Shown: positions 3,540 through 44,495, counted from the stretch's first letter. The stretch is 44,495 nucleotides of DNA from an uncultured Gammaproteobacteria bacterium (GCA_964359095.1 CAYHRJ010000002.1:1-44495), one strand, 5' to 3'. The notes: a model not told the origin generated them from the sequence alone. Made by a program: numbers and translations.

Positions 3540-3658
3540 CGATTGGTTAAAGTTATCCACTGATTTTGATTGACAAGACCAAAAAAGTCTGGTGAAATAA
3601 TTCTAGACACATGAACTCCCCGACACGTGTTGACGGGGATTTTATTATTTTCAAACGT

Positions 3659-4174
3659 ATGCAATATCCAGAACCACTCGTGCCTTCAACGATCATTGAA
3701 GGAAAGATTTATTTTGTTCGTGGTAAAAAAGTGATGGTAGATCGAGACCTTGCTTTGTTGTATGGGGTTACCACAGCAGCATTGAATCAGGCGGTAAGGC
3801 GCAATCAAGAAAGGTTTCCAAACGATTTTATGTTCAAATTATCGCTGGTTGAAGCGAAGAACTTGATATCACAATTTGTGATATCAAGTTCACACGGAGG
3901 TTTTCGTAAGGAACCCATCGTCTTTACTGAGCTTGGAGTCGCCATGCTTTCAACTGTTCTTCGCAGTCCACGTGCTATTGCTGTAAACATTCAGATTATG
4001 AGAACCTTCACTCGTCTGAGGGAGATGCTGACAGAAAATGACGATCTTCGCCGTAAGGTTGAGGTGATGGAGAAACAATATGACGAGCAGTTCAAGATGG
4101 TATTTGATGCGATTCGAAGGATGTTGCTAGAGGATGAGCATGGCAAAATTGAGATTGGATTTCGCTCAAATTAG
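3659..4174 (+). CDS. ORF6N-domain (KilA-N-related) DNA-binding protein
   Basis: IYFVRGKKVMVDRDLALLYGV..LNQAVRRNQERFPNDFMFKLS..FTELGVAMLSTVLRSPRAIAVNIQIMRTF matches the ORF6N domain pattern; the ATG at 3659 is preferred over 3611. Confidence 0.7.
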   Translation: MQYPEPLVPSTIIEGKIYFVRGKKVMVDRDLALLYGVTTAALNQAVRRNQERFPNDFMFKLSLVEAKNLISQFVISSSHGGFRKEPIVFTELGVAMLSTVLRSPRAIAVNIQIMRTFTRLREMLTENDDLRRKVEVMEKQYDEQFKMVFDAIRRMLLEDEHGKIEIGFRSN

Positions 4175-5992: not shown

Positions 5993-6013
5993 CCCCTCCT
6001 TTTCAAGGAGGGG
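5993..6013 (+). terminator. GC-rich hairpin downstream of the secreted-protein gene (no U tract)
   Basis: The 8-bp stem cccctcct/aggagggg with 5-nt loop is nested inside an outer 9-bp inverted repeat ctctggagt (about 5976) / actccagag (about 6041). Confidence 0.3.
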
Positions 6014-6036
6014 ATAGGGGTGGTTATCACTCTTGA

Positions 6037-6070
6037 CCAAGACTCCAGAGATCCGTGTTGGACATCCTGT
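6037..6070 (+). repeat. Upstream cassette motif, copy 1 (core agagatccgtgttggacatcc)
   Basis: The 21-bp identical core (6047-6067) recurs exactly 840 bp downstream; it ends 34 nt before the ATG at 6101. Confidence 0.85.
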
Positions 6071-6100
6071 CCCCACGTTCGTTCCGCCTATGAGTCCGTC

Positions 6101-6376
6101 ATGCTCGCTCTTCTTCTCAGTCTGGCCTGTTCTCCTCCTCCGGCGGCGGAGATGGTCAGCGTCACCAACGGCGTCTCAAGCGCCGAGGTGATCGACTACG
6201 GCAACGGCGTCTACTACCTCGATGCCAGTGGCATGCAGTTCGGCAACGCCTTGTCGGAGTTCATCAAGCAGCACCGCCGCACCCTCGAGGTCGTGGCGGT
6301 CGCTGGCGACGGGAGTTCTCGCTACGGCGACGCCGGCTACTTCATCGTCACCCGTCCTGTCATCGACTGCAACTAG
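6101..6376 (+). CDS. Small lipoprotein (91 aa), unknown function
   Basis: ATG 6101 gives MLALLLSLAC with a lipobox-like LSLAC; strongly GC-rich third codon positions; the track ORF starts at an upstream GTG at 6020. Confidence 0.5.
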   Translation: MLALLLSLACSPPPAAEMVSVTNGVSSAEVIDYGNGVYYLDASGMQFGNALSEFIKQHRRTLEVVAVAGDGSSRYGDAGYFIVTRPVIDCN

Positions 6377-6384
6377 GAGGAATC

Positions 6385-6699
6385 ATGTCTCGCATCAACT
6401 TCAGGACGGTCGGCTACAAGGTCGGCAGGGTTGTGAGGACGAGTCTGATGACCGTGTTCCTGCTGATCTTCGTGTCCGTGAGCCTTTTCATGGGCGTAAC
6501 GGCTGTCTATCTCGTGGTAGCGGCCTTCCATTCCATCGTCGCGATGAAACTGGTGATGGCGTTGTACGCGGCCGTCGGCTTCTTCATGACGGCGACCACT
6601 TCATACCTTTATGGGCTCCTCGTTCATGGGTTTTGGCAGGATCTTCGTCGTCCCAACATCGCTCCATCCGTTCCCACGTTTCCGTCGCGCAGCGACTGA
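6385..6699 (+). CDS. Small polytopic membrane protein (104 aa), unknown function
   Basis: AGGAGG sits 6 nt upstream of the ATG; three hydrophobic segments. Confidence 0.55.
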   Translation: MSRINFRTVGYKVGRVVRTSLMTVFLLIFVSVSLFMGVTAVYLVVAAFHSIVAMKLVMALYAAVGFFMTATTSYLYGLLVHGFWQDLRRPNIAPSVPTFPSRSD

Positions 6700-6705
6700 C
6701 TCGCG

Positions 6706-6799
6706 GTCCACGACCGCACGGCACGGCGTTCGCGAACGACGTGTCACGCGACCCCCGTCCGTCCGCAGATACGACATCTGTGAGACGGACGGGGCGTCT
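6706..6799 (+). repeat. Downstream cassette repeat, copy 1 (12-bp palindrome plus 14-bp-stem hairpin)
   Basis: Contains the perfect palindrome cgttcgcgaacg and the stem gacccccgtccgtc/gacggacggggcgtc (one bulge); a near-identical copy lies at 7282-7370; it starts 7 nt after the stop. Confidence 0.85.
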
Positions 6800-6876
6800 C
6801 ACAACTTTTTCCCACGACTAGAAAGGTCACATATGTGACAAAGTGGTTCAATCCGGCTTCTGTCGTTTTGCCACGA

Positions 6877-6910
6877 GCAAGACCGTAGAGATCCGTGTTG
6901 GACATCCCGT
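6877..6910 (+). repeat. Upstream cassette motif, copy 2
   Basis: Same 21-bp core at 6887-6907, ending 32 nt before the ATG at 6939. Confidence 0.85.
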
Positions 6911-6938
6911 ATTTCACAGAGTCCCTTCAGGAGATTCC

Positions 6939-7274
6939 ATGTCTTCCTACGTCGATCGTTTCTTCCGCCTGTACTGGATGCTCGCATTCGGCGCAATGCT
7001 CGGCATCGGACTCTACATGATGAGTCTCCCCGATACGGTCATGGTGACCGGTGTACGAGAGATCCACGTCGTCAACAGCGCGGGCGTCAACAATCTCGAC
7101 CGCCACTTCAACTTCGATGACGGCTGCGTCCTCGAGGTTGGGGGCAGGATCGAGCAAGCGGCGTTCACCGGCGACGTCCGACTGATGATGTACACCCCGC
7201 CGCGGGACTCTGCTTCCGGCAACTTCTGTCCATCGGGCACTCACTTCGTCGCCTTCGCCGACATGTACTTCTGA
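6939..7274 (+). CDS. Small N-terminally anchored protein (111 aa), unknown function
   Basis: AGGAG sits 6 nt upstream of the ATG at 6939; one TM segment (YWMLAFGAMLGIGLYMM); GC-rich codons. Confidence 0.5.
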   Translation: MSSYVDRFFRLYWMLAFGAMLGIGLYMMSLPDTVMVTGVREIHVVNSAGVNNLDRHFNFDDGCVLEVGGRIEQAAFTGDVRLMMYTPPRDSASGNFCPSGTHFVAFADMYF

Positions 7275-7281
7275 CCGTCAC

Positions 7282-7370
7282 GGTCCACGGCACGGCGTTC
7301 GCGAACGACGTATCACGCGACCCCCGTACGTCCTTGCAGACACGACATCTGTGAGACGGACGGGGCGTCT
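7282..7370 (+). repeat. Downstream cassette repeat, copy 2
   Basis: Aligns to 6706-6799 with an 8-nt deletion near the 5' end and a small indel plus a few substitutions near the hairpin loop; it starts 8 nt after the stop at 7274. Confidence 0.85.
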
Positions 7371-7452
7371 ATTCATCTCTCCGTTGCCTTTCGACACCTG
7401 CGAGCCTGGCTCTCAGATGTGGGAAGATAACCTCTTTGCTGTAGGAGCGTTC

Positions 7453-8097
7453 ATGTTACAGTTACTCTTAATCGCTTGTAGCACTCTCGATCTGGAAGAT
7501 TCCACTGTCGAGGATATCGAAACGGACATCTGTTCGGATCTCGGCTTGGGCGTTCCAGACGACACTGACTGGGACGAGGGAGAGAGCACCATCGACGTGG
7601 ATTGGATGACGGAGGAGCGCGCATACATCCGAGTCACTGCTGAGTGCCTCGTGATCCCACCCTTTCATATCTACACCACACAAGAGGAGGAGTTGCCCAT
7701 CACCTTCCTTACCTTCTCCCTCGCGAGCTACGACAACGGGGAGTGGATCGAGAAGTTCGGTAGCGAACTCACGGTCGAAAGCACACTGGGCGACCTGGGC
7801 TCCTACGAGTCCGTCGGCACCGCTTGTGAGCCGTTCTGCGGCCCGCACTGGGAGATGGACCTCACGGAGTACGGCCTCGTGGTCAGTCCGAAGGAGGACT
7901 TCTACATTGAGTTCGAGATTCCGGGTTTCAACGATCCGTCGGAAATCGACGAAGTGTGGGATGACGAGCGCGACAAGCTCGCCATCATGGTCTACGCCGG
8001 ACACAGTTGGACCGAGGAGACTTCTCCAGGTCAGTACGAGTTCGGGATGTACGAGGCCGGATCACTTCTGACCATCGACGTCGAGGTCATCGAATAG
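7453..8097 (+). CDS. Acidic lipoprotein (214 aa), unknown function
   Basis: ATG 7453 gives MLQLLLIACS (lipobox LIAC) preceded by TAGGAG; very Asp/Glu-rich mature part; the track ORF starts at an upstream GTG at 7351. Confidence 0.55.
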   Translation: MLQLLLIACSTLDLEDSTVEDIETDICSDLGLGVPDDTDWDEGESTIDVDWMTEERAYIRVTAECLVIPPFHIYTTQEEELPITFLTFSLASYDNGEWIEKFGSELTVESTLGDLGSYESVGTACEPFCGPHWEMDLTEYGLVVSPKEDFYIEFEIPGFNDPSEIDEVWDDERDKLAIMVYAGHSWTEETSPGQYEFGMYEAGSLLTIDVEVIE

Positions 8098-8173
8098 ATA
8101 TTTCGCGCGCCTGTACAACGACCCATCTCTCACGGTGGGTATTATTTTTAGGGACAGCCAGTTGCCAGAACCC

Positions 8174-10899: not shown

Positions 10900-10976
10900 T
10901 GGTGGGCGCACGTGGATTCGAACCACGGACCTTCACAATGTCAATGTGACGCTCTAACCAACTGAGCTATGCGCCC
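10900..10976 (-). tRNA. tRNA-Val (anticodon GAC), CCA encoded
   Basis: Manual cloverleaf: acceptor GGGCGCA/TGCGCCC, D stem GCTC/GAGC, anticodon stem TCACA/TGTGA with loop TTGACAT, T arm CGTGG-TTCGAAT-CCACG, ACCA tail. Confidence 0.9.
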
Positions 10977-11553: not shown

Positions 11554-11629
11554 GGGCGCGTAGCTCAACGGTTAGAGCACCGAGCTTATACCTCGGTGGT
11601 TCTTGGTTCGAATCCAAGCGCGCCTACCA
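11554..11629 (+). tRNA. tRNA-Ile with a genomically encoded UAU anticodon, CCA encoded
   Basis: Manual cloverleaf: acceptor GGGCGCG/CGCGCCT (G1-U72), D stem GCTC/GAGC, anticodon stem CCGAG/CTCGG with loop CTTATAC, T arm CTTGG-TTCGAAT-CCAAG, discriminator A, CCA. Confidence 0.85.
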
Positions 11630-36582: not shown

Positions 36583-36628
36583 AAATTAGGCTGTGGATTA
36601 CTTTTTTTGGCAATGCTGGTGTGGTCAA

Positions 36629-36745
36629 AGAAGAAGTAGGAAGCAGGAATTTGGAAGTAGGAATGTGAGTTGAAATTCGAACTTCTAATTTTTTTGTATT
36701 CCTACTTCCTACTTCCTACTTCCAAATTCCTAATTCCATTTTTTT
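36629..36745 (+). terminator. Long hairpin built from inverted 7-nt tandem units, followed by a T run
   Basis: Left units are aagtagg/aagcagg/aatttgg/aagtagg; right units are cctactt x3/ccaaatt/cctaatt. There is a 19-bp perfect pairing of 36646-36664 with 36713-36731, then ccatttttttatttt. Confidence 0.6.
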
Positions 36746-36801
36746 ATTTTGAATTACGAACGATTTATACACAGGCACTTGTTTTTTCTCACAGCACTTA
36801 A

Positions 36802-36883: not shown

Positions 36884-38635
36884 ATGAAGAAGATTGTCGT
36901 CCTCTTCCTCGGACTCTTGATGGGAATCGCGAACGTTGGTGTTTCACCGGCGCATGCTGGTACCACAGCCACGCTTTCGCTTTCTCCAACTAATACATCC
37001 GTGGAGACAGGGGACTCTTTTAGTTTAAGTGTGCTCGTCGACGCTAACGACGAATCGCTCGACACCGTGCGCGTCGATCTCAGTTTTGATCCAGATCTCG
37101 TCGAGATCACCTCGTTTGATCTTGGAAGCTTGTTTCCAAACTTGTCTCCATCGAACGACACAGACAACGATGCAGGGACTCTCAGCTACGGCGCGTACAA
37201 GTTCGGCACACCCGTGACGAGCTCTGGCACGCTTGCCACCGTTACGTTCCACGCTCTCTCAGAGGGGACAGCCACTATCGAAGTGGAAAGCACATCACGA
37301 TTGATTTCAGATGGTGAAGAAACCCTCGACACAGGTGACCTGGGTTCAGCCACGATTACTATTTCAGGTGAGGATGTTGCGTCTGAAGCGGTCGAAGAAG
37401 AAGAGGAAGAATCCGATGACTCAAGTAGTGGTGCAACCGAGAGTGACGAAGCAGCAGCTCTTGTCTACTTCGGTGCACTGTTTGGACGTCTTCCATCCAG
37501 TGATGACGATTGGGAAACCAATGACTGTATTGCTAATGATGGTTGCTATGACTCGGACAACCGCAATCTGACCTACGAAGTTGCTGCGCTTGCAAAGTTC
37601 AACAGCAAGTATGGAGCAAATCCATCCTCGTCCATGGACTGGCAGGCTGTACACGCTCTTGCCTATACCGCGGCTGGACAAGAATTGTTGGGTCTTGATG
37701 TGATTGCGGAAGCAGATGATGAGGAAGAGGTGGCGGAGGTGGATGAGGTAGAAGAGGTGGTTGAGGAAGAATCAGAAGCAAGTCTTGAGCAGCAAGCTCT
37801 CGTCTACTTTGGTGCGTTCTATGCCCGTATGCCTTCCTCAGATGACGACTGGTCGGCTCTGCACTGCATTGCCTACGGCGGATGCCAGGGAGATCCACGC
37901 GATGTCGCAGCTGAACAAGCAGCGCTCGTGATCTTCGGCGCCAAGTACGCAAAAATGCCTTCCACAGATATGGAATGGAACGTCATTCACACGCTTGCTT
38001 ACACAGACTTTTTAGATGAAGGCGATGAAGGAGAAGAGGTGGCGGAGGTGGAAGAGGTAGATGAGGTGGTTGAGGAAGAATCAGAAGCAAGTCTTGAGCA
38101 GCAAGCTCTCGTCTACTTCGGTGCGTTCTATGCTCGTATGCCTTCCTCAGATGATGACTGGTCCGCTCTGCACTGCATCGCTTACGGCGGATGCAAGGAA
38201 GATCCACAAGATGTCGCCGCAGAACAAGCCGCACTCGTGATATTCGGTGCCAAGTACGCAAAGATGCCATCGACCGACATGGAGTGGAACGTGATTCACA
38301 CACTTGCCTATACAGATTTCTTGGATGAGGGCGGCGAGGAAGAAGTTGTAGAAGAGGAGGTCGTTGAGGAAGAAGCGGCAGAAGAGACAGAGCTCACACT
38401 CGAGCAGCAGGCCATTGGCTGGTTTGGAACAATCACAGGACGCCTTCCATCTGAGGACGCTGACTGGGTCGCCATTGATTACATGGTGAACGGATACACC
38501 CCAAGCGAGGACGAGCGCGATCTAGAAGCAGAGTCCGCAGCCATCACGACGTACGTTGATGCATTCGGTGCTCTCCCAAGCTCTGATCAAGACTGGAATA
38601 TTGTTGCCGCGATTGCTTACTCAGGAGCCTTTTAA
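36884..38635 (+). CDS. Secreted cohesin-like domain protein carrying eight copies of an FG..P..DW repeat with poly-acidic linkers
   Basis: ATG at 36884 (MKKIVVLFLGLLMGIANVGVSPAHA signal peptide). The N-terminal module LSLSP..V..GDSFSLSVLVDANDESLDTVRVDLSFDPDLVEI is cohesin-like. It is followed by 4 pairs of 40-50-aa repeats. Confidence 0.6.
   Translation: MKKIVVLFLGLLMGIANVGVSPAHAGTTATLSLSPTNTSVETGDSFSLSVLVDANDESLDTVRVDLSFDPDLVEITSFDLGSLFPNLSPSNDTDNDAGTLSYGAYKFGTPVTSSGTLATVTFHALSEGTATIEVESTSRLISDGEETLDTGDLGSATITISGEDVASEAVEEEEEESDDSSSGATESDEAAALVYFGALFGRLPSSDDDWETNDCIANDGCYDSDNRNLTYEVAALAKFNSKYGANPSSSMDWQAVHALAYTAAGQELLGLDVIAEADDEEEVAEVDEVEEVVEEESEASLEQQALVYFGAFYARMPSSDDDWSALHCIAYGGCQGDPRDVAAEQAALVIFGAKYAKMPSTDMEWNVIHTLAYTDFLDEGDEGEEVAEVEEVDEVVEEESEASLEQQALVYFGAFYARMPSSDDDWSALHCIAYGGCKEDPQDVAAEQAALVIFGAKYAKMPSTDMEWNVIHTLAYTDFLDEGGEEEVVEEEVVEEEAAEETELTLEQQAIGWFGTITGRLPSEDADWVAIDYMVNGYTPSEDERDLEAESAAITTYVDAFGALPSSDQDWNIVAAIAYSGAF
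37715..38332 (+). repeat. Tandem duplication, 2 x 309 bp (103 aa), inside the cohesin-like gene
   Basis: gaagaggtggcggaggtgga.. at 37724 recurs at 38033. The two copies have the same length and differ mostly by synonymous changes plus a few replacements (QGDPRD vs KEDPQD and several acidic-linker residues). Confidence 0.85.
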
Positions 38636-38729
38636 GTAGGTAGATAAGGTAGAAGAGGTAGATATGGTGGATAAGGTAAGAAAACCACCTAATCCACCTA
38701 ATCCACCTACGCCACCTAATCCACCTATC
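38636..38729 (+). other. Intercistronic periodic inverted repeat: 5 x 9-nt purine-rich units abutting 5 x 9-nt pyrimidine-rich units
   Basis: ggtagataa ggtagaaga ggtagatat ggtggataa ggtaagaaa | accacctaa tccacctaa tccacctac gccacctaa tccacctat. It fills nearly the whole spacer between the stop (38635) and the next ATG (38734). Pairing is periodic (AGGT/ACCT blocks) and imperfect. Confidence 0.6.
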
Positions 38730-38733
38730 ACTT

Positions 38734-39609
38734 ATGCCATATAAAAAATTACCAGTCCTGCTCGTGGCGCTGAGTCTCGTGGCACTTCCATGGAGTGCGG
38801 GCGCGACGGTGTCCTCCACGAGTTATCAGATCAATCCTGAGCAAGGGTTCCTCTCACCATCGGCAGACGGAGGCGCCAACGCTGACGGCATGCTGAACTC
38901 CACAACCTACCAGCTTCAAGGAGCGATTGAACCTTATGCTGGTCGCGTTTCCAGCACCTCATATCAGGAAGACGGCGGAGGAGCGTTCCAGTTCTATTGT
39001 GGTGATGGATTTCGAGATTCTTCTGAAACGTGTGACGGCGCAGATTTGAACAGCGCGACCTGTGCCAGCCAAGGATTTGATACAGGAACTCTCACCTGTA
39101 GCTCAGCCTGTGCCTATGTGACCACTGCTTGTTCAACAGCGTCAGGTGGCGGCGGAGGAGGTGGCGGCGGTGGAGGTGGCGGAAGTGCGCCAGATGAACC
39201 AGAGGTTTCAGACGAGATCGCAACACTTGAATACTCTTACTCCACATCGTTCCTGCTTTACGGAAGCATGGATAGCGACACAGATGCGATCACCGTGAAC
39301 GATTCAGAAGATGACGTAGAACTCGTCGATGACGAAACATGGAATGCCCTCGTGTCACTTTCCTACGGGTTGAACAGTTTCGCGATCGTTGCAAGTGATG
39401 GCTCTAACGACTCAGACGAAACCGTCTACGAACTCTACCGAAGACTCATTGGCGACATCACAGGAAACGACACCGTTGATGACTACGACCTTTCCAAGCT
39501 CGTCGGAATCTGGGGTGATGATGATCGTTCAGGAGACTTCAACGAGGATGACATCGTGGACGACTACGACTTCTCCATGATGGTCGCACGTTGGGGAACA
39601 AGCGTTTAG
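38734..39609 (+). CDS. Secreted Cys-rich protein with a poly-Gly linker and a C-terminal dockerin-like domain
   Basis: Signal peptide; three S-T-S-Y-Q motifs; a CGDG..ETCDG..TC..C..C..C cysteine-rich repeat; a 13-Gly run. The C-terminal duplicated Ca-binding segments are DITGNDTVDDYDLSKLVGIWG and DFNEDDIVDDYDFSMMVARWG. Confidence 0.65.
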   Translation: MPYKKLPVLLVALSLVALPWSAGATVSSTSYQINPEQGFLSPSADGGANADGMLNSTTYQLQGAIEPYAGRVSSTSYQEDGGGAFQFYCGDGFRDSSETCDGADLNSATCASQGFDTGTLTCSSACAYVTTACSTASGGGGGGGGGGGGGSAPDEPEVSDEIATLEYSYSTSFLLYGSMDSDTDAITVNDSEDDVELVDDETWNALVSLSYGLNSFAIVASDGSNDSDETVYELYRRLIGDITGNDTVDDYDLSKLVGIWGDDDRSGDFNEDDIVDDYDFSMMVARWGTSV

Positions 39610-39618
39610 ATATTTTAA

Positions 39619-39689
39619 AGGTAGCCGTAGCCTTTAGGCTGCGTCCGGCGCGATTGCGTTGAATGCGCAGGCTGAAGCCTGCGGCTACC
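39619..39689 (+). other. GC-rich long imperfect hairpin between the dockerin gene and the second cohesin-like gene
   Basis: 39620-39643 pairs with 39666-39689 (20 Watson-Crick pairs, 2 G-U pairs and 2 mismatches by hand), including the perfect 8-bp stem ggtagccg/cggctacc. Confidence 0.6.
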
Positions 39690-39718
39690 GATTATTCTGG
39701 AGGGATTTGCCGCATCTT

Positions 39719-40948
39719 ATGAAACAATTCCTTTCTGTTGTCGTGATCGGGATGATGCTCTTCTTGCCTGGTATCTCTCAGGCCGCCGGAGCCGCATCGA
39801 TGAGTCTGGACCAAGCAAGTTACTCGGTTGAACGTGGAGAACAATTCGACGTCACGGTGAGCGTAAACCCAAACGGGGAAGCACTCGACACGGTACGTGC
39901 GGTTGTCACGTTTGATCCAACGCGTGTGCAAGTACGAAACGTCTCTCTTGTCGGAGCGTTTGATCGTGTGGCGCCAGGCAACTATTGGGACAACGAAACA
40001 GGAAAAGTTTCATGGGGAGCTTTCACTCTTGAGGGTCCCGTGGCCGCTGAATCCTCATTTATCACCATCACCTTTCTTGGCCTTCAAGAGGGAAGTGGTG
40101 AGATCGAGATTTCAGGCGACTCACGAGCGATCGCAAATGGTGAAGAGAAGATCGACACAGGGAACCTCGGCGCTGCCGAGGTGAATGTGACCGCATCGAG
40201 CACAGCAGAAGCTGGGACAGCACTTATCGTCATTGAGAGTGCGACCCACACAAACGATGTTGACTGGTACGCGGTCAACGACGTGGAGTTCACCTGGACA
40301 GCCTTACAAGGAGATAATGACATCACGGCTTACTACTACTCATTCGATGAGACTTCTGACAGTGAGCCTGCGTCGTATCTCGCCGCGACAACGACAGAAC
40401 TGTCCTTCAGTGATGTCGGTGATGGCGTGCACTATCTCCGAATAAAGGGAGTGCAAGCAAATGGAAAGCAGACCAGCGTTGTAAGCCGACGAGTGAATAT
40501 CGATACCACTGCCCCGCACGAAATCGAGCTTCTGGTGCAGGACAACAAAATCCTAGAAGGCGAATCAGCCTGGTTCACCTTTGCCACACTCGATGATGTA
40601 TCAGGTGTGCTCCAGTACCAGATCGCGATTAACGATAGTGGCTATCAAGTCCAGGAAAGCCCACTGGAAATGAGCGATCTGCCTGTGGGAACGTACTTCT
40701 TTCGAGTGGCCGCGATTGATCGAGCAGGGAACGCTTCGTACGGAAGCACCTCAGTTCGCGTGTACCCAGAAGGAACGGACTTGAGTCGCCCAGATGGATA
40801 CGATGAGGACGCAGAGATGACTGCTATCACACAGTCGGTCAGTGACGAGACGAACAATACAAAGAAGCTGTTGATAACTTTCATCTTGGGAGTGATCATC
40901 ATTCTTGGTATAATTTCCGCGAAGAAAAAAAGAAAAATTAAATCATAG
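39719..40948 (+). CDS. Membrane-anchored cohesin-like surface protein with Ig/FN3-like middle region
   Basis: ATG at 39719 (MKQFLSVVVIGMMLFLPGISQAAG signal peptide). The module SLDQASYSVERGEQFDVTVSVNPNGEALDTVRAVVTFDPTRVQV is collinear with the 36884 protein. The C-terminal TM helix LLITFILGVIIILGIISA is followed by KKKRKIKS. Confidence 0.6.
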   Translation: MKQFLSVVVIGMMLFLPGISQAAGAASMSLDQASYSVERGEQFDVTVSVNPNGEALDTVRAVVTFDPTRVQVRNVSLVGAFDRVAPGNYWDNETGKVSWGAFTLEGPVAAESSFITITFLGLQEGSGEIEISGDSRAIANGEEKIDTGNLGAAEVNVTASSTAEAGTALIVIESATHTNDVDWYAVNDVEFTWTALQGDNDITAYYYSFDETSDSEPASYLAATTTELSFSDVGDGVHYLRIKGVQANGKQTSVVSRRVNIDTTAPHEIELLVQDNKILEGESAWFTFATLDDVSGVLQYQIAINDSGYQVQESPLEMSDLPVGTYFFRVAAIDRAGNASYGSTSVRVYPEGTDLSRPDGYDEDAEMTAITQSVSDETNNTKKLLITFILGVIIILGIISAKKKRKIKS

Positions 40949-41118: not shown

Positions 41119-44100
41119 ATGCGAACCGCCAAACTCATACTGCACTCGATTGTCATGATCTCGATGGTGTTCTCCACCCTCGCGATCGCCCTCGTTGCAG
41201 CAACGTCCACTGCCCAAGCGCAGGTCCCGACATCGATCGGGTACAACGGACGCCTCTTTAATGCATCAGGTACAGCCCTCACGGGTACGTATTTTTTCTG
41301 GGTTGACCTGGAGAATACACTCACAGGCGGCACCGTCGTTACGGGAAACATCCAGGCACTGAACTTTCTTGCGACGCCTACCGCGTCGATTACCGTGACC
41401 AACGGTTTCTTCTCAGTGCAGATTCCACTGGGAGCAAGTCTTTCTGATTTTTCGGATAACCTTTTTCTCGAGTTGAAGGTGCACACGGCTGACGTGGTTG
41501 GAAGTGCTGAGACACTCTCTCCTCGCGTGGAGATCACCAAGACGCCTTACTCTATTTTCACCCAAGCGATTGAAGCAGCCGCAACAGCACCAACCGATGA
41601 CACATTTGACGGTCGCTTGTTCTACGATACAGCTGCTGACAAGATTCGATTTTACGATGGTGACACATGGAATTTTGTCGAAGGCATCACAGACACAGCA
41701 ACTCTCACTTTGGACAACGCAGCAGCCACAGCCGTGAATATCGGTGCTGGCGCGGTTGCGAAGACCGTTACGATCGGTAACGGCACAGGCGCAACATCTG
41801 TCGTGTTGAACGCTGGTACTGGTGCCTTGAACATTGGTACCAACGCCATTGCTCACACCGTAACGCTCGGTAACACAACAGGTGCAACAGCTGTTCAAGT
41901 AAACACCGGATCCGGTGGATTTGGCGTTGACGGTCCTGAATTTGATATCACCCCTGGCACAGGAGCCATCACGATTAACGATAGCGCCGATGCTGGTGCG
42001 CTGTTGGTTGAAGGATCCAATTTCGATATTAACTCCCTCGACTTCGTGGGAACTGGTGCTATTACCTCAGCAGCCACAACGGCACTGAGTCTCACCTCCG
42101 GTACAACCGGAGCAGTGTCAGTCGACTCAGGATCAACCGGCGCGGTGAACCTGGGAACTGGCGCAGCAGCAAAAACCATCACTCTCGGTAACGCAGCTTC
42201 CACAGAAGCCGAGGTGAACGCACTTCTCGTCGACATCAATGGCGGTACTGGCGGTGTCCTCATTGACGGCGGAGCAGCGTCAAACTTTACAACTTCCGTA
42301 GGAGCCCTCACGCTCTCAACGACTGCTGGCGGCACGTCCTCGAGTGTGATTTTGCGCTCAGTCGATACTTCTTCGGATGCGATTTTCTTGGATGCAGATG
42401 GAGCTGCTGGTGCGGGTATTACACTGGATGCATACGACGCCACATCCAACACGACGGGAGCCATCTTGATGGAGGGCGCTTATGTTCAGATTGATACCTT
42501 CAATTCCAATGGATTAAACTCTTCCGGATTTGATGTAAACGTTGGAGATTCCGGAACAATTTCATTGACTACTACCTCTGGAGCGGTCTCCTTAACCGCT
42601 GGTGGAGGTTCCAACGTTACACTTACAAGTGCTTCTGGAGGAGTCAGCTTTGACACACAAACCGCCGATCAAACGATCAGAGTTGGTACATCAAACGTTG
42701 ATAGAAACATTAACATTGGTACAACAACAGGTGCTGATACCATAACACTTGGAGATGCAACAGGTGCTGACACATTTAATTTTTTGAGTGGCGTAAGCAC
42801 AAGTGGCGATGTCGTCGATGTCACCTTTGCATCTTTGACTACAAACGACGCCTTTGACATCGATACAGCCGCGATCACAACCGGAGATGTATTTGACATC
42901 ACCTCAGGTACGGTTCGAACAAGTGGATCAGCCCTTCATATCACAGATGATTCTCTTGCCGCCGCGGTTACTGGGGATTTGATTCAGATTGATGTCGCAG
43001 GGTCAAAAGACACCAACACACTGGACATTGACGTATCCCATGCAACTCTCGTTGCTACAGGCAACGAACTTGACATCACCTACTCTGGCGCCGCTCACAC
43101 TGGCAACGCTGTGGACCTCAACATGGGAACCAACGTGGCTGGAGATGCGATCAATATCACCACGGCTACTACGAGCGGTCAGGCAATTCAGGTTGATGCT
43201 TCAGCAGCGCTCACAGCCGATCTGATTACGATTGCTTCGCTGCTTACGGGTGATACCGTTGGTGTTGATGCACTTTCAATTACCATGACAGCGAGCGATC
43301 AGACAAATCGAGTAAATGCATTGATAAATGGAACTATGACTGCGGCTGGAACAGCTGCCGGAGACATCGTAATCGGTTTGCTTCTTGATCACGCTGGGAC
43401 AACTGCGGGTACAGATGCCGCGATTGATATTGAGGGAACAACAGCTTGGGACGCAGATTTGAACCTTCAGAATGACCTGACGATGACTAATAGTGATGAC
43501 AATGACCTAACTCTTACAGAAAACTCTCTCTCTTTGAATCTTGATTTCGGTGAAGCGACAGCGAGCACCATCGAGGGATCTACGGCAAGCTCGCTCACGT
43601 TAACGTCCAGCAATGCCGCAGCCGACGCTCTACTCCTGCGTGCAACAGGTGGCACCTTAGCAACCGCTCACTTGACCTCAAACGGAACAGGAACCGCCTC
43701 TGTGGATATTGATGCCACAGGTGTAGGTGGAGACATCGACATTGATTCCGCTGATGCCATCACCATCGATGCCACGACATCCTTCTCCATTGACGGAACG
43801 GGTACTTCCTCAAACCTCACCCTGACTTCCAATGGCGCAGCTGACGATCTCACCATTGCTCTTGCAGGCGTCTTCAACTCCTCACTCATCCTCTCTTCCG
43901 CTGGTACTGATGCAGATGCCATGCAGATTACAACCACCGCTGGTGGTATGGATATCTCCGTCACAGGTGATCTCGCTGGTGAAGACTTGGACATCACAAC
44001 CGTTGGTGCAACAACAGAGATGCGACTCACGTCAGCCTCTACAACCGCTGACTCTATCGCCATCCAGGCAGTAACAACCACCGCTGGAATTGACATTGAC

Positions 44101-44495
44101 TCAGGCACAGGTGGTATCGACATCCTCTCAGGTGGAGTCTTCTCCATCGACGGAGTCTCTGCTTCAAACCTCTCTGTCACCTCTAACCTTGCTGCGGAAG
44201 ATCTCACCATCTCTCAGATTGGCGCAGTCAATGCCAGCCTGATTCTCTCTGCTGCTGGTACAGCCGAGGACGCCATGCAGATCACCACAACGGCTGGCGG
44301 TCTCAACATCTCCGTCACAGGTGATCTCGCTGGTGAAGACTTGGACATCACAGCTATTGGTACAGCAACCGAGATTCGTGTGACTGGAGCTTCCACAGAA
44401 GCCGACGCCATCATCGTGGACGCCACAGCTGGAGGAGTCATCATCGACTCTGGCTTAGCTGCAGCTGACTCGCTCTTGCTTCGTGCAACAGGTGG
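41119..44495 (+). CDS. Giant secreted Thr/Ala/Gly/Asp-rich repeat protein (adhesin or fibre-like), 3' end beyond the window
   Basis: Hand translation of all 1125 codons from ATG 41119 shows no stop. There is a signal peptide (MRTAKLILHSIVMISMVFSTLAIALVAATSTAQA), then low-complexity T/A/G/D repeats. It is missing from the ORF track because no stop lies in the window. All long minus-strand ORFs here are antisense shadows. Confidence 0.8.
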   Translation, partial: MRTAKLILHSIVMISMVFSTLAIALVAATSTAQAQVPTSIGYNGRLFNASGTALTGTYFFWVDLENTLTGGTVVTGNIQALNFLATPTASITVTNGFFSVQIPLGASLSDFSDNLFLELKVHTADVVGSAETLSPRVEITKTPYSIFTQAIEAAATAPTDDTFDGRLFYDTAADKIRFYDGDTWNFVEGITDTATLTLDNAAATAVNIGAGAVAKTVTIGNGTGATSVVLNAGTGALNIGTNAIAHTVTLGNTTGATAVQVNTGSGGFGVDGPEFDITPGTGAITINDSADAGALLVEGSNFDINSLDFVGTGAITSAATTALSLTSGTTGAVSVDSGSTGAVNLGTGAAAKTITLGNAASTEAEVNALLVDINGGTGGVLIDGGAASNFTTSVGALTLSTTAGGTSSSVILRSVDTSSDAIFLDADGAAGAGITLDAYDATSNTTGAILMEGAYVQIDTFNSNGLNSSGFDVNVGDSGTISLTTTSGAVSLTAGGGSNVTLTSASGGVSFDTQTADQTIRVGTSNVDRNINIGTTTGADTITLGDATGADTFNFLSGVSTSGDVVDVTFASLTTNDAFDIDTAAITTGDVFDITSGTVRTSGSALHITDDSLAAAVTGDLIQIDVAGSKDTNTLDIDVSHATLVATGNELDITYSGAAHTGNAVDLNMGTNVAGDAINITTATTSGQAIQVDASAALTADLITIASLLTGDTVGVDALSITMTASDQTNRVNALINGTMTAAGTAAGDIVIGLLLDHAGTTAGTDAAIDIEGTTAWDADLNLQNDLTMTNSDDNDLTLTENSLSLNLDFGEATASTIEGSTASSLTLTSSNAAADALLLRATGGTLATAHLTSNGTGTASVDIDATGVGGDIDIDSADAITIDATTSFSIDGTGTSSNLTLTSNGAADDLTIALAGVFNSSLILSSAGTDADAMQITTTAGGMDISVTGDLAGEDLDITTVGATTEMRLTSASTTADSIAIQAVTTTAGIDIDSGTGGIDILSGGVFSIDGVSASNLSVTSNLAAEDLTISQIGAVNASLILSAAGTAEDAMQITTTAGGLNISVTGDLAGEDLDITAIGTATEIRVTGASTEADAIIVDATAGGVIIDSGLAAADSLLLRATG
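43783..44495 (+). repeat. Tandem coding repeats of about 354-357 bp, within a higher-order repeat of about 843 bp
   Basis: atgcagat..tccgtcacaggtgatctcgctggtgaagacttggacatcaca at 43921 recurs at 44275 (a 42-nt identical stretch). The ALLLRATGG-coding segment at about 43621 recurs at about 44464. Confidence 0.75.

Follow-up and report, generated by a model that had tools for sequence, protein, structure and literature searches.

A cluster of four genes in a 44,495-nucleotide (nt) stretch of DNA recorded as from an uncultured Gammaproteobacteria bacterium (GCA_964359095.1, CAYHRJ010000002.1:1-44495) probably encodes a non-cellulosomal cohesin–dockerin system for assembly at the cell surface. 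We refer to the whole stretch as the window; its 44 kb are the visible part of the genome. The host of the cluster is Candidatus Uhrbacteria, within the candidate phyla radiation (CPR; Patescibacteria). The genes, g1 to g4, are closely spaced and co-oriented on the plus strand: g1 and g3 are predicted to encode proteins with N-terminal cohesins, g2 lies between them and would encode their dockerin-bearing counterpart, and g4 encodes a giant fibre- or adhesin-like protein. A preliminary description of the window, made from the sequence alone, had singled out g1, g2 and g3 as a self-contained triad. That boundary proved too narrow: the giant gene is conserved alongside the three, and two membrane-protein genes follow in relatives.

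The two cohesin proteins are built differently behind a common N-terminal part. The product of g1 (36884–38635; 583 amino acids (aa), numbered here as in each protein) consists of a signal peptide (36884–36958), a cohesin (36959–37378) and four helical double-repeat modules, and that of g3 (39719–40948; 409 aa) begins with a signal peptide (39719–39784) and a cohesin (39785–40198). The list of open reading frames (ORFs) in the window puts their starts further upstream, at TTG 36749 and TTG 39659. Because homologues begin at MKK... or MKQ..., with ATG-encoded signal peptides, the ATG starts at 36884 and 39719 are correct, and the gene coordinates of the preliminary description hold. Hydropathy analysis placed an N-terminal hydrophobic, signal-peptide-like segment in each of g1, g2, g3 and g4, in line with the signal peptides proposed earlier for g1 and g3. 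BLASTP aligned the N-terminal modules of these two proteins collinearly over 167 residues (35% identity, E = 4e-31), and the alignment displays the shared pattern previously quoted for them (LDTVR...FDP...GEE..DTG.LG). Against Pfam PF00963 (Cohesin; cutoff 24.1 bits), g1 scored 38.9 bits (E = 1.2e-9) and g3 a marginal 24.3 bits. An AlphaFold2 (AF2) model of g1, for which 30 homologues were used, has a predicted local distance difference test (pLDDT) score above 90 across aa 29–161 and forms a nine-stranded β-sandwich (jelly-roll), the cohesin fold. When this model was compared with the PDB by Foldseek, ranks 1–45 were all cohesins (template modelling (TM) scores of 0.6–0.79), of type I (6kgc, 1g1k, 2vn5), type II (3l8q, 1qzn) and type III (5lxv, 2zf9), together with the non-cellulosomal 2xdh (TM 0.77) and 2vo8 (TM 0.79). 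Single-sequence searches of the PDB with g1 and g3 returned nothing useful. Most of the 87 g1 homologues carry PF00963, and the NCBI name 'cohesin domain-containing protein' is already attached to some of them and to some of the 91 homologues of g3. We assign the N-terminal modules of g1 and g3 as paralogous cohesins, which upholds the earlier reading of these modules.

Between these genes, g2 (38734–39609; 291 aa) encodes a secreted protein whose last 55 residues (39442–39606) we assign as a compact dockerin, on evidence at the level of the family rather than from the window sequence alone. This region holds two 22-residue segments, GDITGNDTVDDYDLSKLVGIWG (aa 240–261) and GDFNEDDIVDDYDFSMMVARWG (aa 267–288), which together span 39451–39597 and have 12 of their 22 residues in common; each is a 12-residue Ca-loop-like motif followed by a helix, and the linker between them is 5 residues long (D262–S266). 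The loops (DITGNDTVDDYD, aa 241–252, and DFNEDDIVDDYD, aa 268–279) carry D/T/N/D/D in one case and D/N/D/D/D in the other at positions 1, 3, 5, 9 and 12. Two loop–helix duplicates of about 22 residues are the architecture of a type I dockerin, and the duplication had been recognized before, with segments of 21 residues. The AF2 model of g2 (pLDDT above 90 for aa 150–291) has the dockerin helices at residues 250–258 and 277–285 and superposes on the dockerin 2y3n_B of B. cellulosolvens (Foldseek TM 0.81; root-mean-square deviation 1.3 Å; 54 columns). PF00404 (Dockerin_1; cutoff 22.9 bits) was matched at E ≤ 0.01 by 24 of the 27 aligned g2 homologues, with a best E of 4.9e-7, and distant relatives of g2 in a Parcubacteria metagenome-assembled genome (MAG) pass it with 31.7 and 27.7 bits. 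Consistent with this assignment, a profile of the g2 family found dockerins (4fl4_A, 2jnk_A, 1daq_A and 2mte_A) as its best matches in the PDB. Because DYDLS and DYDFS, plus two Trp, are invariant across both segments in the family alignment, both potential cohesin-binding faces of the dockerin appear to be under selection.

The rest of g2 has no enzyme domain. Behind a signal peptide (38734–38805) come a head of three S-T-S-Y β-repeats (38806–38985), a six-Cys module (38986–39138), a hinge that is a run of 13 Gly (39145–39183) and an immunoglobulin (Ig)-like sandwich (39196–39441; aa 155–236) that resembles glucodextranase domain B and FN3. The Cys module (aa 85–135), with the pattern CGDGFxDxxExCDG..., is weakly like TIGR02232/DUF4215 (TIGR02232: E = 0.028, 14.2 bits, cutoff 20.8). 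PF13948 was matched by 1 of the 27 g2 homologues (E = 0.0038). A single-sequence phmmer search of the PDB with g2 was discarded, as it gave only single-chain variable fragment (scFv)/linker artefacts caused by the 13-Gly run.

Downstream of its cohesin, g3 continues with an Ig-like domain (40220–40504), an FN3-like domain (40505–40771) that matches chitinase 6bt9_A (E = 9.5e-5), a linker, a transmembrane helix (about 40865–40921) and the tail KKKRKIKS. Among the products of g1–g4, this is the only one in which hydropathy analysis placed a second hydrophobic stretch (about aa 383–401) followed by such a basic tail, as had been noted in the preliminary description. The protein is thus read as a type I membrane protein that carries its N-terminal cohesin atop two Ig/FN3-like spacer domains. 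One JGI homologue is labelled 'LPXTG-motif', yet the motif is absent from the sequences: we did not find it in g3 or in the alignment of its homologues, and anchoring of g3 by a sortase was rejected on this ground. Nor did Pfam match SLH (S-layer homology) repeats in g1, g2 or g3.

The C-terminal part of g1 had been described as eight copies of an unassigned repeat. The copies are present, as half-repeats that make up four double modules (37433–37681, 37772–38023, 38081–38332 and 38387–38632; aa 184–266, 297–380, 400–483 and 502–583), which we delimited by alignment of the copies and by AF2. Each double module is predicted to contain four helices, and acidic E/V linkers separate them. The module, about 80 aa long and with a broader consensus that ends in ...W.IVRAIAYSGA, has no family match by sequence in Pfam, NCBIfam or the PDB. 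We built a profile from the four copies in the window and ran it against 1.84 billion representative proteins, of which it matched 1070 at E ≤ 1e-3, 222 of them also at E ≤ 1e-10. We re-scanned the position of the module in the best 138 of the 1070 matches: it ends within 8 residues of the C terminus in 121, and of the 121 re-scanned proteins that lack a cohesin, 110 have it at the C terminus. These proteins are 100–3258 aa long and carry one to five tandem copies. The passengers that lie N-terminal of the module, recorded for 46 proteins, include fn3, CARDB, CHB_HEX_C_1, Peptidase_S8, polysaccharide deacetylase, β-helix and LRR domains; an S8 peptidase of Uhrbacteria (P0252), for example, ends in a module of the g1 type, and one module-bearing protein is named as from a Patescibacteria MAG. 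The module is thus apparently a Patescibacterial C-terminal appendage on more than 100 unrelated families of secreted protein, which suggests that it is a candidate portable domain for targeting or envelope anchoring. Because it sits C-terminally on so many unrelated secreted proteins, we read g1 as a cohesin that is probably anchored in the envelope rather than soluble.

We then considered how widely the arrangement is shared. One genome per species was scanned, which gave 44 species-level loci with g2 relatives; their neighbours were called by synteny based on hidden Markov models, and the number of assessable loci differs with the feature. Where titles are informative they are mostly Candidatus Uhrbacteria, 13 loci are titled 'uncultured Gammaproteobacteria', and the closest relative (84% identical) comes from a groundwater MAG. 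In 42 of 43 assessable loci, the gene that comes next on the downstream side of g2 encodes a cohesin, and in 35 of 42 g1 precedes g2. In at least 36 of 39, a giant gene with the N terminus YQGRLK, whose homologues encode 1900–2900 aa, follows g3; 28 of these were called by N-terminal match directly 3' of g3, and 8 more have a large ORF with the same N terminus (1890–2877 aa where complete). Each locus has one dockerin, always the C terminus of g2. On the gene order that the preliminary description advised checking, g1, g2 and g3 are syntenic over the 44 loci, and the order g1–g2–g3–giant fibre gene is conserved and co-oriented across Uhrbacteria. The core of the cluster is a pair, a gene for a secreted dockerin protein followed by one for a membrane-anchored cohesin protein (the 42 of 43 loci above).

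The fourth gene, g4 (41119–44495, plus strand), runs off the window as an open frame. Its first 1125 aa, which begin with a signal peptide, lie within the window and belong to a giant, secreted, T/A/G/D/S-rich protein of fibre or adhesin-like character. In one related locus (L003), the g4 homologue has a sub-threshold match to H_lectin near its C terminus, and no dockerin, cohesin or anchor of its own was found in it. Beyond the g4 homologue, where contigs reach, 13 loci encode a bitopic protein of about 155 aa (MAIESKM.RGPIG...YQAVFLDNGQVYFG), and 10 of these 13 also encode a large polytopic Wzy-like protein (L005, 19583–20877; L014, 18814–20888; L023, 18838–20843). Because a Wzy-like enzyme adjoins a giant Ser/Thr-rich protein, the fibre might be O-glycosylated. 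At a further locus (L028), a Wzy_C-like gene lies at the place expected for the polytopic protein.

We favour, as the probable reading, a surface-assembly cluster that works as follows. The g3 protein would present its cohesin outside the membrane on the Ig/FN3 stalk, and the helical modules of g1 would keep that protein in the envelope. The g2 dockerin would plug, in a Ca-dependent manner, into one or both of the cohesins of g3 and g1; its two invariant DYD(L/F)S faces could permit either orientation or two partners, and dockerins that recognize two different cohesin partners are documented (PMC12484212). The resulting complex may show the Cys-rich and β-repeat head of g2 at the cell surface by way of the flexible Gly hinge, and may act with the giant fibre g4, possibly tethering or organizing it. 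It would probably serve to attach the cell to a host cell or substrate and not to degrade polysaccharides. An envelope protein with a dockerin domain is essential in Southlakia, an epibiotic Saccharibacterium (PMC10633639). A surface role outside the cellulosome had been proposed in the preliminary description, and the absence of glycoside hydrolase, sortase and SLH domains supports it: a Pfam scan (E ≤ 1e-4) of 29 further window ORFs (non-overlapping, at least 150 aa) found none of the three, in agreement with what had been stated for the window.

Several points weigh against this reading. The g3 cohesin score barely reaches the Pfam threshold, and its fold is taken from homology to g1. The C terminus of g2 itself scores 15.1 bits against the PF00404 cutoff, with a single segment aligned, and Pfam on full-length g2 missed the dockerin; in the profile check put forward in the preliminary description, both cohesins reach the cutoff and g2's own sequence stays below it, whereas most of its homologues match. 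The β-repeat head of g2 is modelled poorly (pLDDT below 50 for aa 17–64). The g4 protein is without a recognizable dockerin, cohesin or anchor, so that its physical link to the complex is conjectural, and the anchoring role of the helical module is read solely from its position in proteins. With 44 kb in view, other dockerin proteins elsewhere in the genome could be the main clients. Finally, in one locus from a Patescibacteria MAG (L029, 7487–10450), the g2 homologue is followed by the giant gene and the cohesin gene between them is missing. Because g2 adjoins the giant gene directly there, this arrangement hints that the link between g2 and the fibre is perhaps as fundamental as that between g2 and the cohesin.

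A more far-reaching form of the favoured reading would make the cluster part of a Patescibacterial display toolkit, in which the helical module is a counterpart of SLH or cell-wall-binding domains, the symmetrical g2 dockerin binds the membrane cohesin g3 and a wall-anchored g1 simultaneously, and the resulting envelope-spanning tether holds or positions the giant fibre for episymbiotic attachment to host cells. We put this forward tentatively and regard it, taken whole, as doubtful.

Dockerin–cohesin gene pairs outside Uhrbacteria bear on cognate pairing. A Saccharibacteria MAG (L047, 9491–11168) has one such pair, a gene for a secreted protein with a C-terminal dockerin and, after it, a membrane-cohesin gene, and the Parcubacteria MAG mentioned above (L048, 3407–4871 and 7247–11019) has two, with cargo proteins of 211 and 974 aa. 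Every one of the partner proteins has an N-terminal cohesin and a C-terminal transmembrane helix. The recognition residues of the L048 dockerins are AL/IL, as against DY in g2. Side-by-side orthogonal pairs are what cognate cohesin–dockerin recognition predicts, and these pairs lend it circumstantial support. By eye, the L047 dockerin protein itself appears to carry a cohesin-like domain at its N terminus, as an adaptor might.

Alternatively, g1 and g3 may form a general display platform, the main clients of which are other dockerin proteins (proteases, hydrolases or adhesins) encoded elsewhere in the genome, with g2 as one client, a regulator or a competitor. Such a platform would fit the two cohesins per one local dockerin and the limited view of the genome; the 974-aa dockerin protein of L048 shows that cargo may vary, and the genome scan gave 84 further pattern matches outside the g2 relatives. 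We nevertheless hold it to be unlikely. The near-universal adjacency of g2 and g3 points to a dedicated pair, the DYD(L/F)S faces are invariant across the g2 family, and each L048 dockerin gene has its own adjoining cohesin gene.

It is also conceivable that the modules do not pair at all: the cohesin folds would be ligand- or glycan-binding adhesin domains, the dockerin a Ca-stabilized cap, and the cluster an operon for the biogenesis or glycosylation of the fibre. Non-docking domains do share the cohesin fold (the CLIPPER adhesin domain 9ifr and the pilin 8gsy are among Foldseek ranks 46–49 of the g1 model), the neighbourhood includes Wzy-like membrane proteins and a glycan island, and binding between cohesin and dockerin is an inference. 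Against this stand the 45 best structural matches, which are bona fide cohesins, the adjoining of PF00963 and PF00404 genes in at least four independent arrangements, and the retention by the g2 dockerin of both canonical Ca loops and both helices. We therefore judge an arrangement without pairing decidedly unlikely.

The version given in the preliminary description kept the docking of g2 by g3 and left g1 freely soluble, either competing with g3 or bridging to other cells. In its favour, g1 has no transmembrane helix, LPXTG motif or SLH domain, and its highly acidic linkers would suit an extended soluble protein. A repeat that is almost confined to the extreme C termini of varied secreted proteins, the S8 protease included, is however the signature of targeting or anchoring, and a soluble g1 is very improbable. 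Least credible is that the cluster is a minimal cellulosome-like system that degrades polysaccharides, for although cohesin and dockerin are the signature modules of cellulosomes, we found no glycoside hydrolase or carbohydrate-binding module in g1–g4 or in the 29 further window ORFs and rejected this explanation on that account; moreover, g1 and g3 have a single cohesin each, g2 lacks an enzyme domain, and the host, a CPR bacterium, has a reduced genome.

Set beside known systems, the surface-assembly cluster that we favour is functionally closest to single-cohesin anchoring proteins of cellulosome producers, of the type of OlpA and OlpC of C. thermocellum (cohesin plus SLH) and ScaE of R. 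flavefaciens (cohesin plus sortase signal), and to non-cellulosomal modules. As in OlpA, OlpC and ScaE, a single cohesin at the N terminus is combined with an envelope anchor at the C terminus (in g1, a candidate one) and has a dockerin partner, putative in the present case; the cohesin fold compares with those of anchoring proteins (4dh2 and 2zf9, among the Foldseek matches) at TM 0.5–0.7. Unlike in these proteins, the anchor is a transmembrane helix with a basic tail in g3 and would be the four-helix repeat module in g1, neither of which is SLH or LPXTG; the client is Cys-rich and not an enzyme; and the cluster belongs to a CPR bacterium that shows no cellulolytic genes in the sequence in view. 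Cohesins and dockerins that serve beyond cellulose degradation are also found in A. fulgidus (2xdh) and C. perfringens (2vo8, 2jh2 and 2w1n; dockerin 2jnk/2ozn), and they rank among the best matches by fold or profile. The similarly compact C. perfringens dockerin 2jnk_A aligned to the g2 profile with a single one-residue gap. In C. perfringens, however, the modules are parts of large secreted glycosidases and bring toxin complexes together, whereas here they belong to dedicated small proteins, one of them a membrane-anchored cohesin, whose conserved operon also includes a giant fibre gene. With type I dockerins (CelS, 1daq; GH9 dockerin, 4fl4), g2 has in common two internally symmetrical, C-terminal, EF-hand-like loop–helix segments of 22 residues, and it differs from them in its 5-residue linker, its putative recognition pair, which is D-Y and not S-T or A-L, and its sub-threshold Pfam score. 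By description, g2 is also like SEML1_0315 of Southlakia epibionticum (Saccharibacteria), a dockerin-bearing, envelope-associated Patescibacterial protein that was essential in transposon sequencing and that, as the authors of that study proposed, takes part in host interaction (PMC10633639).

Because public records already annotate the single cohesin proteins as such, and cohesin–dockerin pairs outside cellulosomes are known, the system is not categorically new. In the literature searched, no paper ties a dockerin or a cohesin to Parcubacteria or Uhrbacteria, and the architecture of the cluster and the helical C-terminal module are absent from that literature and from the domain libraries searched. 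What sets it apart from the closest systems are the anchors (the transmembrane helix and, putatively, the helical module), the non-enzymatic client, the compact D-Y dockerin and the conserved operon that unites these genes with a giant fibre gene in a CPR lineage. Members of the CPR/Patescibacteria are assumed to spend their lives fixed to other cells, but the molecules of their attachment surfaces are largely unknown. A conserved and experimentally tractable putative docking pair beside a giant fibre gene offers a handle on surface assembly, and an unannotated C-terminal module common to hundreds of secreted proteins offers one on surface anchoring. If the favoured reading holds, a major uncultivated lineage would add to cohesin–dockerin biology a format that is anchored in the membrane and free of enzymes.

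Upstream of the cluster, a glycan biosynthesis island of about 22 kb (14816–36582) lies between PolyA_pol and g1. It encodes GT4 and GT2 transferases, five methyltransferases, a carbamoyltransferase, a GDSL esterase, an epimerase, two Wzy_C+TPR proteins and Bac_transf. The upstream region takes two forms among related loci: in other lineages, a PseudoU synthase and PolyA_pol precede g1, and in the subclade of the window an epimerase, two or three Wzy_C genes and a sugar transferase do so. Because many related loci have PolyA_pol directly before g1, the island seems to be a lineage-specific neighbour or insertion outside the conserved unit. Of the location between a glycan locus and a giant gene to which the preliminary description had drawn attention, the giant gene is thus the conserved side, and the glycan locus adjoins the cluster only in the subclade of the window.

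Predicted hairpins lie before g1, g2 and g3, all on the plus strand. The hairpin upstream of g1 (36627–36749) has 37-nt inverted-repeat arms, a U-run and a predicted folding energy of −48 kcal/mol (z = −6.45); it probably terminates the sugar-transferase gene that precedes it, and would therefore mark the 5' boundary of the cluster. Between g1 and g2, a second hairpin (38637–38727; 41-nt arms; −37.7 kcal/mol, z = −5.9) is missing in relatives, in which the gap is about 20 nt. A third lies between g2 and g3 (39620–39689; 24-nt arms, 83% complementary; −51.4 kcal/mol, z = −4.4). The hairpins before g1 and g2 contain short purine-rich and pyrimidine-rich tandem units (GGAAGTA..., CCACCTAAT...). 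Because the gaps at these places are only about 20–35 nt in relatives, all three look like window-specific insertions, and they may act as terminators or attenuators or represent small palindromic elements.

Elsewhere in the window, a tRNA-Ile with anticodon TAT (UAU) adjoins a tRNA-Val(GAC), at 11554–11629 (plus strand) and 10900–10976 (minus strand); tRNA-Ile(UAU) is an uncommon bacterial isoacceptor. A protein with an ORF6N domain, of phage antirepressor type, is encoded at 3611–4174. The GC content of positions 6001–8100 is 0.58, compared with about 0.48 in other parts of the window, the ORFs at 6222–6821 and 7351–8097 have no Pfam match, and the region around 6001–8100 could be foreign or mobile DNA.

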